Shown: piece by piece, positions 23,842 to 62,576 of the stretch
How the letters are laid out: the number at the start of each line of letters is the position of its first letter
Numbering within the stretch: the stretch's first letter is position 1
NCBI GenBank assembly: GCA_963726265.1
Contig: CAVSBQ010000002.1
Location: 384,001 to 448,000 of the forward strand
Length of the DNA stretch: 64,000 bases
Direction of reading: 5' to 3'
DNA from: Candidatus Aenigmatarchaeota archaeon
GTDB taxonomy: Archaea; Aenigmatarchaeota; Aenigmatarchaeia; QMZP01; QMZT01
The notes under the pieces: generated by a model
Databases searched by the model: none
What the model was told of the DNA's origin: nothing
Seen by the model: only the letters and a program-made list of their open reading frames with translations
Translations under genes and position numbers: made by a program

Positions 23842-23966
23842 GCCGGGATGGCGGAATGGTAACGCGCTAGCCTGGAAAAAGGCTTAGGATTCCGCTGATG
23901 CGGAATTAACAAAAACAGACAGCTAGTCTCCTTACGGGGTCCTGGGTTCGAATCCCAGTCCCGGCG
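23842..23966 (+). tRNA. tRNA-Ser(GGA) with 43-nt intron at 37/38 (23878-23920)
   Basis: GCCGGGA/TCCCGGC acceptor, CTAGC-CT-GGA-A|A-GCTAG, long variable arm, TTCGAAT T-loop. Confidence 0.93.
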
Positions 23967-29776: not shown

Positions 29777-29926
29777 TGCGGGGGCAGGGATTCGAACCCT
29801 GGAACACATTCCTCGTTCTTCGCTTTCGCGAAAGGCACTCTAAGTGAATAGGTCTTGAGCGTCGACATCATCTTGAATCAGGGTTCAAGACCATCCTATC
29901 GCCTTTAACCACTTGGCTACCCCCGC
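29777..29926 (-). tRNA. tRNA-Leu(CAA) with two non-canonical introns: 30/31 (29861-29895) and variable arm (~29808-29839)
   Basis: Reverse complement: GCGGGGG...ATAG|G-CT-CAA-GA-CCTAT-TCACTTAG|GTGTTC-CAGGG TTCGAAT CCCTG CCCCCGC A; first intron has a CGAT/GTCG BHB helix. Confidence 0.88.
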
Positions 29927-30546: not shown

Positions 30547-30643
30547 TGCGCCGGCCGGGATTTGAACCCGGGCCACAGGCTTGGCAAGCTTGCACCAAAC
30601 CAACTTCATGTGTCTGTGTCCTACCAGGCTAGACTACCGGCGC
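30547..30643 (-). tRNA. tRNA-Gly(GCC) with 24-nt intron at 29/30 (30590-30613)
   Basis: Reverse complement: GCGCCGG...CAG|GC-TT-GCC-AA-GCCTG...CCGGG TTCAAAT CCCGG CCGGCGC A. Confidence 0.92.
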
Positions 30644-34012: not shown

Positions 34013-34564
34013 ATGGATTTTGCGCGCGTGCTCAAGACAGGTGCAGCCGCCGGCGCCATCTACGGCGTCCTGCAGGGCATAGTTGCCGTCCTGTCTTTCG
34101 TTTTCTACAGGGAGCAGATAATAGAGGTGATGAGGGCAGCGATACCATCTGGCGTCAACATAGGCATGACCATGGACCAGCTCGCAAACATCAGCATGAT
34201 GACTGCGATACCGGGCTCGGTTATAGGCGGCATAATATCGGGCATAATCGTGAGCTTCATTTTTTCGCTGATGTACGGGGAGCTCATGGGGAAGGATTCG
34301 AGAAGGAAGGGCATTTTCCTGTGCATCCTCCTGACGATAGGCGTAGTGCTCGGCGAACTCGCATACCCCGGAGGCTTCGTGGGCAGCATACTGCTCATCC
34401 AGACAGGATATCTCATGCTCGCCCCGCTCAGCATCGCATTCTTCTTATGCCTCGGCTACCTCACGGGCATTTTCTACGACAGGTTCGAAGACAGCAAACA
34501 TAGGAAAAAGGCAGCGGAATGCAAGCCGGACGAGGAAAAGGAAAAGTCCCACAAGAAAAAATAA
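34013..34564 (+). CDS. Multi-pass membrane protein
   Basis: Four hydrophobic segments, charged tail. Confidence 0.7.
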   Translation: MDFARVLKTGAAAGAIYGVLQGIVAVLSFVFYREQIIEVMRAAIPSGVNIGMTMDQLANISMMTAIPGSVIGGIISGIIVSFIFSLMYGELMGKDSRRKGIFLCILLTIGVVLGELAYPGGFVGSILLIQTGYLMLAPLSIAFFLCLGYLTGIFYDRFEDSKHRKKAAECKPDEEKEKSHKKK

Positions 34565-34589
34565 ACCGGCAATGTAATAAAAAAATCAA

Positions 34590-34613
34590 TTTATAAACAC
34601 TCCTCTTTATAAA
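34590..34613 (+). promoter_or_regulatory. Tandem TATA boxes (TTTATAAA at 34590-34597 and 34606-34613)
   Basis: First lies ~25 nt before the tRNA 5' fragment at 34623; second ~26 nt before the endonuclease ATG at 34640. Confidence 0.6.
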
Positions 34614-34639
34614 ATATAACACAGCGGGGTGGAGAAATA

Positions 34640-35224
34640 ATGACACTGAATAAAATATTTTTAGAAAATTTAACGGAAACTGAAAAGGGATATATTATCG
34701 GTTTGTTTATTGGAGATGGCTATTCTTATTATGATAAAAAACATAGACATTATACAATTGAATTTTATTTGAATTCAGAACGCAACAAGAAAATACAAAA
34801 ACAATTAATTTTCTTATTGGAAAAAATTGGATTGAAGTGTTTTGTTTTAAAGGACAAGAGGTTTAATTGCAATAGAATAAGAGTTTATTCAAAACATCTA
34901 GTTAACTTTTTGAATTCATCTGTGATAAGAAATTGTAAAATCGATTTCGGTATTGGTTATGTATCAGGTATTATAGATTCTGAAGGCTATGTAAATCATG
35001 AAAAAAGTTTTGTTAATGTAGTTAGCACAAACAAAGACGTATTGAAAAATTGCAAGAATATTTTGAAAAAATTTAAAATTGAAGCTAAAATTAGAAATAG
35101 AAAAAAATCTAGCAAAGATAAAAAGAAATCTTATATATTACACATATCATACAAGATTAAAGATATAAAGTTAAATTCGATTAAGATGAACAGCGGGGCA
35201 ATGCTTAGCGGGGATTGTCTTTGA
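34640..35224 (+). mobile_element. Two-motif LAGLIDADG homing endonuclease gene inserted at the tRNA-iMet 5' end
   Basis: Motifs GYIIGLFIGDG and GYVSGIIDSEG; much more AT-rich than flanks; bounded by an ACAGCGGGG direct repeat (34621-34629, 35190-35198). Confidence 0.9.
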
Positions 35225-35303
35225 GACAACCGCAATGGAGCAGCCTGGAGTGCTCGCTGGGCCCATAACCCAGAGGTCGATGGTTCAAATCCATCCCCCG
35301 CTA
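35207..35303 (+). tRNA. Initiator tRNA-Met(CAT) with 22-nt intron at 7/8 (35214-35235); alternative 5' exon at 34623-34629 would give a 606-nt intron
   Basis: AGCGGGG|TGGAGCAGCCTGGAGTGCTCG CTGGG CC CAT AA CCCAG...CCCCGCT A; A1-U72 and three G-C pairs mark an initiator; BHB helix GCGG/CCGC. Confidence 0.9.
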
Positions 35304-35335
35304 TAATATTTTATAATATTCCATCAGGTGGTCGT

Positions 35336-35665
35336 CTGAAGTGGCTGTTGCTTCTGATCGCAGGCATTATTCTTGTTTCCGGGTGCGTTCAGACGCAGCA
35401 GGCTTCGCAGGATATTTCCGAGCAGGCGAAAGAGAAATGCATCGGGATATGCATGACTATCAGCTCCGACCTTTCGGGCAGAAGCCCATGCCTTTCCGAC
35501 AACAATTCCGAATGGAACATAAGCGGCTGGGTCTGCGACGTCGCGCATTCGCCGAGGCAGGCGATGGATGACCTGCCAGAGAACCAGTGCAGCGAATTCC
35601 GCGAGGGGAAGGCGAGCCATTTCGTCGAAGTCGATGCGGCCTGCGAATTCATACGCGCCGTATGA
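35336..35665 (+). CDS. Small Cys-rich lipoprotein-like protein (probable CTG start; TTG at 35348 is the alternative)
   Basis: (M)KWLLLLIAGIILVSGC lipobox-like; AGGTGG RBS just upstream. Confidence 0.65.
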   Translation: MKWLLLLIAGIILVSGCVQTQQASQDISEQAKEKCIGICMTISSDLSGRSPCLSDNNSEWNISGWVCDVAHSPRQAMDDLPENQCSEFREGKASHFVEVDAACEFIRAV

Positions 35666-41129: not shown

Positions 41130-41273
41130 AGCCCCGGGCGAGGATTGAACTCGCGACCTTTCGCTTTCTGGAAGTCGAGTGACCAGCGAAGCGAAGCTAC
41201 TGGTTTTCGCTTAAGCCTTTTGAGTAAAAGGCTATTATACCAAGCGAACGCTCTACCACTGAGCTACCGAGGC
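41130..41273 (-). tRNA. tRNA-Thr(GGT) with 72-nt intron at 37/38 (41166-41237)
   Basis: Reverse complement: GCCTCGG TA GCTCAGTGGTAGAGC G TTCGC TT GGT A|A GCGAA...CCGGGGC T; BHB helix TTGG/CCAG. Confidence 0.93.
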
Positions 41274-62436: not shown

Positions 62437-62576
62437 GGGGTCGTGGTGTAGCTAAGCCCTTTCACGGCAGCTTTCGCTTGCACGAAAGCGCTTGCGGAAA
62501 ACGTGAACGGCTCTGCAATGGTTCAGCATTCAGGCTTCGGGAGCCTGCGACCTGAGTTCGAATCTCAGCGACCCCA
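62437..62576 (+). tRNA. tRNA-Pro(CGG) with 65-nt D-loop intron at 17/17a (62454-62518)
   Basis: GGGGTCG TG GTGTAGCT|TGGTTCAGCAT T CAGGC TT CGG GA GCCTG...CGACCCC A; BHB helix GTAG/CTGC, inner helix AGCC/GGCT. Confidence 0.92.

Follow-up and report, generated by a model that had tools for sequence, protein, structure and literature searches.

Organization of the initiator tRNA locus

How does a LAGLIDADG homing endonuclease gene come to lie within the only initiator tRNA gene (tRNA-iMet) of an archaeon, and which of the copies of the tRNA start found there serves as its 5′ exon? The locus in question occupies positions 34590–35303 of a 64,000-nt stretch of DNA (the window; positions 384001–448000 of contig C2 of genome G000, the genome under study); positions below are those of the window unless stated otherwise. 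G000 belongs to the Aenigmatarchaeota (DPANN), comprises 1.13 Mb in four contigs, is 88% complete, and has a guanine-plus-cytosine (GC) content of 52%, with 51–53% in all four contigs. Its tRNA-iMet gene contains an insert of 606 nt (34630–35235) with 25% GC; 200-nt segments wholly within this block have 24–27% GC, compared with 50–57% in the flanks. From the evidence described below, it is likely that a mobile 606-nt LAGLIDADG cassette entered the single tRNA-iMet gene by homing, at about nt 12/13, supplying a replacement exon and a mini-intron that would make its carrier immune. The features of the locus are as follows.

34590..34597, + strand: TATA-like box TTTATAAA, putative ancestral tRNA-iMet promoter (direct reading; aligned in G003 and G004)
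34607-34615, + strand: second TATA-like run
34623..34634, + strand: orphan copy 1, tRNA-iMet nt 1–12, at the ancestral gene start (direct reading; empty alleles)
34640..35224, + strand: LAGLIDADG open reading frame (ORF), 194 amino acids plus stop (ORF call, Pfam, fold)
35192..35198, + strand: copy 2 of the 5′ strand of the acceptor stem, within the ORF as N-S-G codons (heptamer scan; same place in relatives)
35203..35206, + strand: leader GCTT, the 5′ strand of the outer helix of the bulge-helix-bulge (BHB) motif, pairing with G10–C13 (35238–35241)
35207..35213, + strand: copy 3, the working 5′ exon, tRNA nt 1–7 (splice in script; sole copy in relatives lacking copy 1)
35214..35235, + strand: BHB intron, 22 nt, at tRNA position 7/8 (folding, homologous introns)
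35236..35303, + strand: 3′ exon, tRNA-iMet nt 8–73, no CCA encoded (ARAGORN, Rfam)

The cassette thus lies outside any intron: its 3′ end replaces tRNA nt 1–12, the replacement is split by the 22-nt intron, and the resident nt 1–12 are left behind the old promoter as an orphan. The TTTATAAA box, the putative ancestral promoter, is spaced 26 nt from the tRNA 12-mer. The orphan GGUGGAG (34628–34634), 5 nt before the ATG of the ORF, may act as a ribosome-binding site. The last codons of the ORF traverse copies 2 and 3 and enter the intron, and the stop codon TGA (35222–35224) is located at the loop of the intron hairpin. An earlier note on this DNA had described tRNA nt 1–12 directly after the promoter, two further AGCGGGG copies at 35192 and 35207, a 22-nt insert followed by the tRNA body from U8, and an ORF that reads through both downstream copies to a stop in the hairpin loop; direct reading and a heptamer scan located each of these elements. 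The 12-mer occurs once in the window, with 0.24 occurrences expected when up to one mismatch is allowed, and the AGCGGGG heptamer occurs 14 times against 9.2 expected. Because the heptamer alone is not rare, the case rests on three same-strand copies in 591 nt of AT-rich DNA and on the conservation of the layout elsewhere. Copy 2 has a counterpart at the identical place in G084, L098, L120, L121, and L122, and is probably a relic of an earlier 5′ exon.

ARAGORN identified the tRNA body as Met(CAT), and the Rfam tRNA match to it covers model positions 8–63. When 35207–35213 was joined to 35236–35303 in a script, ARAGORN read the product as a canonical tRNA-Met(CAT) whose acceptor stem has 7 bp. 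This tRNA has an A1:U72 pair, and its anticodon stem contains three G-C pairs. Since the 68-nt body has a single match in the G000 genome and only one initiator-type anticodon arm was found there, this is the only tRNA-iMet gene found in G000; the intact tRNA-iMet elsewhere that the earlier note had named as an objection did not turn up in this 88% complete genome. The anticodon loop reads CCCAUAA, with C at position 33 (35267–35268 correspond to tRNA positions 32–33), a form common to several relatives, while others have CUCAUAA. Position 33 of tRNAs is nearly universally U.

The 22-nt insert as a BHB intron

The BHB that the earlier note had drawn around the last copy is borne out in its pairs: the central helix joins 35208–35211 to 35230–35233 (4/4 pairs), the bulges lie at 35212–35214 and 35234–35236, and the inner stem joins 35215–35220 to 35224–35229 (6 pairs). 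All eight introns found at position 7/8 in the order (that of G000 and seven others) fit a helix-bulge-helix-bulge-helix arrangement. Their bulges read GGa (GAa, GGt) and aaU, the inner stem has 3 bp or more, and the outer helix has 3–4 bp. The BHB is the minimum free energy (MFE) structure in three of them and lies 0.4–2.0 kcal/mol above it in the other five. In a hand count on these eight related sequences, made without a shuffle control, the first central pair was G-C in three, G-U in four, and A-U in one, and the outer pairing of leader positions −1 to −3 with G10–G12 was kept in all eight via C-G and U-G exchanges; the inner-stem sequences are unrelated and different in all eight. G084 has A2:U71 in its acceptor stem and an intron ending in CCGT, so that a G-C to A-U exchange preserves the central helix. 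Homologous introns ending in CCG(C/T)AA were found in seven other genomes of the order. The intron of G000 shares its first 7 nt with the 30-nt intron of G044 and resembles the introns of that group at its end. In G032, the endonuclease gene is dead (several stops), yet the intron has a perfect 10-bp stem. On these comparisons the 22-nt insert is a real BHB intron with predicted splicing, because all eight introns fit the motif with the G-C to A-U change, the stem is kept in G032, and removal of the insert yields a canonical tRNA.

In the only BHB with flanking helices, the ORF does not lie between the splice sites, as that of a protein-coding BHB intron would; it precedes the 5′ splice site (35213/35214), and just its final 11 nt (three codons plus the stop) reach past that site. 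Covariance models of group I and group II ribozymes gave no match at E ≤ 5 in 34500–35400 and none at the gathering score in the window, and a group I or group II intron was rejected on this basis. G000 encodes an RNase P RNA (81.2 bits, full model, E 3e-23) and one splicing endonuclease (EndA) gene of 398 amino acids with N-terminal and catalytic domains. The presence of both means that G000 can process a long leader and may be able to cut a non-canonical intron.

The encoded endonuclease

The AT-rich two-motif LAGLIDADG ORF proposed in the earlier note was recovered by a profile search: LAGLIDADG_3 (PF14528) matched with E 3e-16 and 59.9 bits (cut-off 22.5) in two stretches. D26 is the last residue of motif 1 and E115 that of motif 2, so that both motifs of this single-chain, two-motif protein end in an acidic residue. 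Among seven homologues, G25-D26-G27 and D113/G116 are invariant, motif 2 reads D-S-(E/D)-G, and position 115 is E in five and D in two. D26 and position 115 are presumably the catalytic acidic residues, by analogy with I-DmoI. An AlphaFold model of moderate confidence (pLDDT 67.8, pTM 0.51) showed the element order expected for a double alpha-beta-beta-alpha-beta-beta-alpha fold. The best fold match in the PDB was I-DmoI (E 7.7e-9, TM 0.55–0.57, 167 columns, 22% identity), and the 34 top-ranked fold matches were all I-DmoI chains. A sequence search against PDB chains gave no match at E ≤ 0.01.

Empty alleles and assembly support

Empty tRNA-iMet alleles, by which the earlier note had proposed to check its reading, were found in relatives. 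In the same-genus genomes G001, G002, and G004, the tRNA starts at the same 12-mer and is uninterrupted through nt 14 or further. G003 and G004 share with the window the upstream gene end and the TATA box at the same distance to the tRNA start. In a different genus, G068 is empty, and its genus-mates G035 and G044 have the endonuclease and a 7/8 intron beside the same upstream gene. A contig of a related organism from run X2 joins 34629 to 35236, skipping the 606 nt, and run X1 contains a related allele that lacks the endonuclease gene and has a 33-nt D-loop insert. The locus is thus polymorphic for presence and absence at a precise site, with exact-boundary empty alleles in genus-mates and other runs.

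The earlier note had also considered an assembly chimera. Contigs of run X1 with zero differences contain each junction within one contig (34300–34708 and 35154–35311). X1 is possibly the source sample of the genome, and its support for the junctions does not count as independent; independent support comes from the other assemblies in which the layout recurs. The runs compared were contigs of four DNA runs, and no RNA run containing the locus was found among those listed.

Recurrence of the endonuclease next to intron-bearing tRNA-iMet genes

We searched for homologues of the window endonuclease (family A). Close homologues were present in 8 of the 91 genomes of the order (48–56% identity, or a pseudogene), six further places came from species-representative genomes, and seven new ones came from a metagenome scan, giving 21 distinct places. 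Two phyla, Aenigmatarchaeota and Nanoarchaeota, are named in the record titles of genomes that have the unit. Three of the 21 end inside the ORF; among the 18 with readable downstream DNA, 17 are directly 5′ of tRNA-iMet, with the ORF ending either inside the tRNA or no more than about 40 nt from its start. Every one of these 17 tRNAs has a short insert near nt 12, at 7/8 in 10, at about 10/11 in three, and at 14/15 in four; for L096 and L097, counted as 7/8, position 8/9 is equally possible and the MFE structure has no clear BHB.

A LAGLIDADG family unrelated to family A (family B, ca. 309 amino acids) precedes 7/8-intron alleles in G052 and G085. At these loci (L064 290–1216 in G052 and L057 in G085), the introns are 22 and 33 nt long and end in GGCCGTAA. 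Upstream of the family-B ORFs, a search for relics of the tRNA 5′ end found none. ARAGORN found no tRNA at ten loci with weaker LAGLIDADG matches (26–34% identity, one a short fragment), which is not evidence of absence, as ARAGORN misses intron-rich tRNAs.

To relate intron position to the endonuclease, 1 kb before each tRNA-iMet was searched with profiles of four LAGLIDADG families in the 62 genomes of the order that have a readable tRNA-iMet 5′ part; six genomes were excluded despite a tRNA match, as the D-arm anchor was not found. These genomes are related, and the numbers are given as counts without a statistical test:

tRNA-iMet nt 1–16 uninterrupted: 41 genomes, LAGLIDADG ORF or pseudogene upstream in 0 (two of the 41 with less than 200 nt of upstream sequence)
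Intron at 7/8: 8 genomes, LAGLIDADG ORF or pseudogene upstream in 7 (none in G046)
Intron at about 10/11: 2 genomes, LAGLIDADG ORF or pseudogene upstream in 0
Intron at 14/15: 11 genomes, LAGLIDADG ORF or pseudogene upstream in 2

All nine alleles with an upstream LAGLIDADG ORF or pseudogene are therefore intron-bearing (seven at 7/8 and two at 14/15).

Joint inheritance of endonuclease and intron

The earlier note had proposed that endonuclease and intron move together. This is supported by the endonuclease tree, which tracks intron type rather than host genus, and by the co-occurrence of both in another family of the order. The endonuclease of G000 clusters with three proteins from that other family (G084, G035, and G044), whose genomes all have 7/8 introns. 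The endonuclease of G003, from the same genus as G000, clusters with that of G018 (support 99/97), and both have 14/15 introns. In contrast, the tRNA body of G000 is native, with 96–98% identity to its family-mates versus 91% to G084 and G035. The left junction after TGGAG reads AAATAAT in G000 and G018, AAATATT in G003, and AATG in G084, L120, and L125. Thus, by the association counts and the tree, a free-standing endonuclease and an intron without an ORF are inherited together, as in collaborative homing.

G004 corresponds to G003 minus the endonuclease gene and has the identical 14/15 intron, a state that would result from recombination between the 12-nt repeats of a G003-like allele. Tandem relic copies of the tRNA start, 34 nt apart, were observed in L037 (G018), L038 (G003), and L126. 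The second tandem relic gained a T, which created the ATG of the endonuclease ORF, and in L126 the same two changes are present in both relic copies. The tandem relics suggest repeated rounds of invasion.

Predicted invasion and maturation of the locus

In the predicted course of events, the enzyme would recognise approximately nt 2–23 of the intron-less gene and cut near nt 12. Introns at 7/8, 10/11, or 14/15 would break this target and leave the carrier immune; self-immunity of this kind is a strong inference. Repair from the carrier would copy the endonuclease together with the intron, or the intron alone, and recombination that drops the endonuclease but keeps the intron would give rise to intron-only alleles. 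After invasion, the old promoter would drive one transcript from near 34623 that is both the endonuclease mRNA and the pre-tRNA leader, and this transcript would be either translated into endonuclease or processed into tRNA. For the latter, EndA is predicted to cut at 35213/35214 and 35235/35236, with the outer BHB helix built with leader bases, and RNase P would then remove the leader before 35207. The region of copy 1 would supply the endonuclease gene with a promoter and perhaps a ribosome-binding site.

Copy 1 is dispensable, judging from relatives in which it is unusable and the tRNA is intact: it is a 10-of-13 look-alike in G035, unrecognisable in G044 and G032, absent from L099 and L127, and changed at two positions in L126. 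Of the two arrangements that the earlier note had left side by side, the sequences favour invasion of an intron-less tRNA-iMet by an element that supplies a new 5′ exon over a single 606-nt coding intron spliced to copy 1, because copy 1 is decayed or absent in relatives with an intact tRNA and because G003 and G018 have no 7/8 intron. The empty alleles behind the same promoter likewise support the former, and the failure of flanking helices with copy 1 counts against the latter.

Alternative explanations

Several observations weigh against this account. Support for the 7/8 clade in the endonuclease tree is only 80/86. The homologue at L102 sits 3′ of a tRNA-iMet with a D-loop insert (the L102 contig belongs to a metagenome-assembled genome labelled as a bacterium and may be mis-binned). 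The RNase P RNA match is 2.8 bits under the Rfam gathering score, and the BHB of G000 lies 0.4 kcal/mol above the MFE structure, a slipped-register alternative of the short fragment. Copy 1 perfectly matches its own acceptor stem in G000 and G084, including the A2 variant of G084, which fits a functional copy 1, and the MFE structure computed for the 681-nt transcript in full has the 3′ acceptor strand paired with copy 1 instead of copy 3; the MFE of so long an AU-rich transcript was not treated as decisive either way. Finally, 12 of the 53 alleles without an upstream endonuclease gene still have an intron between nt 7 and 15. One of them, G046 (L060), has a 34-nt 7/8 intron with the usual CTT leader and no endonuclease gene within 1 kb, and is a candidate intron-only (immune) allele; these alleles indicate that such introns persist, or arise, independently of the endonuclease. 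The cassette and its replacement exon could then be real and the mini-intron incidental, a rider or an older feature, with self-cleavage escaped in some other way or the enzyme barely active. G046, the nine 14/15 and two 10/11 intron alleles without an upstream LAGLIDADG ORF, and the general richness of this lineage in tRNA introns all agree with such a view, which we nevertheless consider unlikely: the nine of nine alleles of the order with an upstream ORF and 17 of 18 family-A loci are interrupted no more than 5 nt away from the insertion point, at three or four positions, the unrelated family B also precedes 7/8-intron alleles, and a rebuilt gene without an interruption would regain the full target.

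The properties of copy 1 bear on the second arrangement of the earlier note, in which copy 1 (34623–34629) is the true 5′ exon and 34630–35235 is one coding BHB intron that uses CCGC at 35230–35233. Copy 1 is intact (12/12) right behind the promoter, could make the same 4-bp helix, and is also intact in G084, G003, G018, L096–L098, and L120. Its integrity is, however, predicted by homing as well, since the recipient would retain its own left flank at each invasion. With copy 1 there are no flanking helices: the preceding AACAC gives two of four pairs with G10–C13, and the start of the intron is unpaired with the bases before CCGC, leaving no inner stem. Moreover, in G035, G044, G032, L099, L126, and L127 the endonuclease or its remnant persists beside an intact tRNA with no usable copy 1, copy 1 of L122 differs from the working exon at nt 7, and a giant intron cannot be drawn in G003 and G018, which have the endonuclease and copy 1 but neither CCGCAA nor a 7/8 insert. 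We therefore give a coding intron only a small chance. Smaller still is that of the direct repeat marking site-specific integration at an att-type site (as for SSV, pNOB8-type elements, and the Caldiarchaeum tRNA-Thr) instead of endonuclease homing. The order of tRNA fragment, insert, and rebuilt tRNA with a new intron is the layout described for Caldiarchaeum (PMC3293823), but the repeat here is just 12 nt, the same small unit recurs in genomes labelled Aenigmatarchaeota and Nanoarchaeota, and the insert has one ORF, LAGLIDADG, with no integrase or recombinase; among ORFs of at least 40 amino acids, the 606-nt insert contained only the LAGLIDADG gene, besides a 61-amino-acid reverse-strand frame overlapping its first 17 nt. 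It is just as improbable that the protein is immobile and domesticated, binding DNA or RNA, for instance, to help tRNA expression. In G000, each of the three free-standing LAGLIDADG ORFs lies directly 5′ of a tRNA gene, and one of them is GC-rich by eye, unlike the iMet block; against this, close homologues are patchy (8 of the 91 genomes), genus-mates have empty sites, G032 has a pseudogene, the iMet-linked ORF has 25% GC in a 52% GC genome, and the endonuclease tree is incongruent with host genus.

Other LAGLIDADG ORFs and tRNA genes

Two further free-standing LAGLIDADG ORFs were observed in G000. The ORF at L002 506–1246 (G000:C2:135005–135745) encodes 246 amino acids (LAGLIDADG_3, E 6.9e-16) and runs into tRNA-Ala(GGC), where its stop codon forms tRNA nt 8–10; this tRNA has a 39-nt insert after the anticodon arm, and a 93%-identical copy of the ORF is present in the same-genus genome G003. 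By eye, no relic of the tRNA start was seen upstream of this ORF. The ORF at L119 339–974 (G000:C2:176738–177373) encodes 211 amino acids, is the GC-rich one mentioned above, and ends 13 nt before a class II-type tRNA. Together with the iMet-linked gene, three of three free-standing LAGLIDADG ORFs thus lie directly 5′ of tRNA genes. A fourth LAGLIDADG domain, in an 888-amino-acid frame at about C2:848000, is probably an intein.

In the window, 62513–62568 (+ strand) has a partial tRNA match (Rfam model positions 10–63, 29.7 bits) with both ends missing, like the iMet body, and may be another tRNA interrupted near its ends. tRNA genes with large inserts (35–74 nt) were found at 23842–23966, 29777–29926, 30547–30643, and 41130–41273, one of them with two inserts, and several were misread by ARAGORN. 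An ARAGORN prediction of 'tRNA-Pyl' with a 496-nt intron (C2:1081281–1081869) had no Rfam support and was dropped.

Relation to known systems

The likely course of events at tRNA-iMet, homing of an endonuclease cassette with a replacement exon and an intron that breaks the target, resembles collaborative homing in phages. In both, the endonuclease gene lies outside the intron, and the intron interrupts a conserved gene at or near the site that the enzyme presumably targets. The two are passed on jointly, and carriers would be protected by the intron. The present system differs in that the intron is a protein-spliced BHB mini-intron of 22–34 nt in a tRNA, not a ribozyme, and in that the endonuclease is inside the target gene with a duplicate of the first 12 nt. 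With I-DmoI it shares a monomeric two-motif protein of about 190 amino acids, an archaeal host, and a BHB intron at the same locus; I-DmoI and its kin are encoded inside archaeal rRNA BHB introns, whereas the present ORF occupies the 5′ leader of its target, a tRNA gene.

In Caldiarchaeum subterraneum, tRNA-Thr(GGU) is reported to consist of a 5′ tRNA fragment, a 1.8-kb recombinase element, and a tRNA with an extra intron, and the authors proposed that the element delivered the intron and that the intron blocks further invasion (Sugahara et al. 2012, PMC3293823). The orphan 5′ fragment, the mobile insert, and the rebuilt tRNA with an intron gained from the element are alike. As described there, however, that element is 1.8 kb long, encodes a recombinase, has an inferred att site, and is found at one locus in one population, whereas the present one is 0.6 kb long, encodes a LAGLIDADG endonuclease, targets tRNA-iMet, and is found at 21 places. 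Randau and Soll, as quoted in PMC4090602, proposed that tRNA introns shield tRNA genes from integrating elements. The tRNA intron as a shield against a DNA parasite that recognises a conserved tRNA sequence is common to that proposal, in its quoted form, and to ours; here the parasite itself would bring the shield, and it is a homing endonuclease and not an integrating virus or plasmid. ARMAN-2 is reported to have non-canonical tRNA introns and a three-unit epsilon-2 EndA (PMC3488258, PMC5829648). G000 resembles it as a DPANN genome with many non-canonical introns and a single long EndA (398 amino acids in G000), and neither abstract mentions position 7/8 or a link to an endonuclease gene.

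The earlier note's doubt that this arrangement had a precedent was justified: no description of a tRNA-embedded LAGLIDADG gene with a mini-intron was found in the open-access literature. What appears to be new is a LAGLIDADG endonuclease that resides in a tRNA gene outside any intron, a cassette that carries a replacement exon, and the pairing of an endonuclease with BHB mini-introns, repeated at several positions in genomes labelled as two phyla. More tentatively, and with slightly less than even confidence, the sequences may point to a DPANN-wide class of LAGLIDADG exon-replacement cassettes in tRNA genes, in which the mRNA is the tRNA leader, BHB mini-introns immunise the carrier, and intron-only alleles arise later, when recombination between the short repeats removes the endonuclease gene.

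Implications

The origin and role of non-canonical archaeal tRNA introns have long been debated, the ideas being transposition, integration of elements, and protection. This locus and its 20 relatives repeatedly bring together a selfish enzyme, its presumed target at nt 7–15 of tRNA-iMet, and three or four alternative mini-introns, and empty, full, decayed, and intron-only alleles can all be compared. The protection hypothesis thereby becomes open to tests that require just one small protein and a handful of synthetic DNAs. The locus moreover shows how an endonuclease, with no intron or intein to house it, could inhabit an essential RNA gene, by duplicating the start of the gene and using the gene's promoter, and this use of the promoter would tie endonuclease expression to pre-tRNA processing. 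If the DPANN-wide reading is correct, homing endonucleases would directly drive how non-canonical tRNA introns are gained and spread, and the system would be an archaeal, protein-spliced counterpart of collaborative homing.

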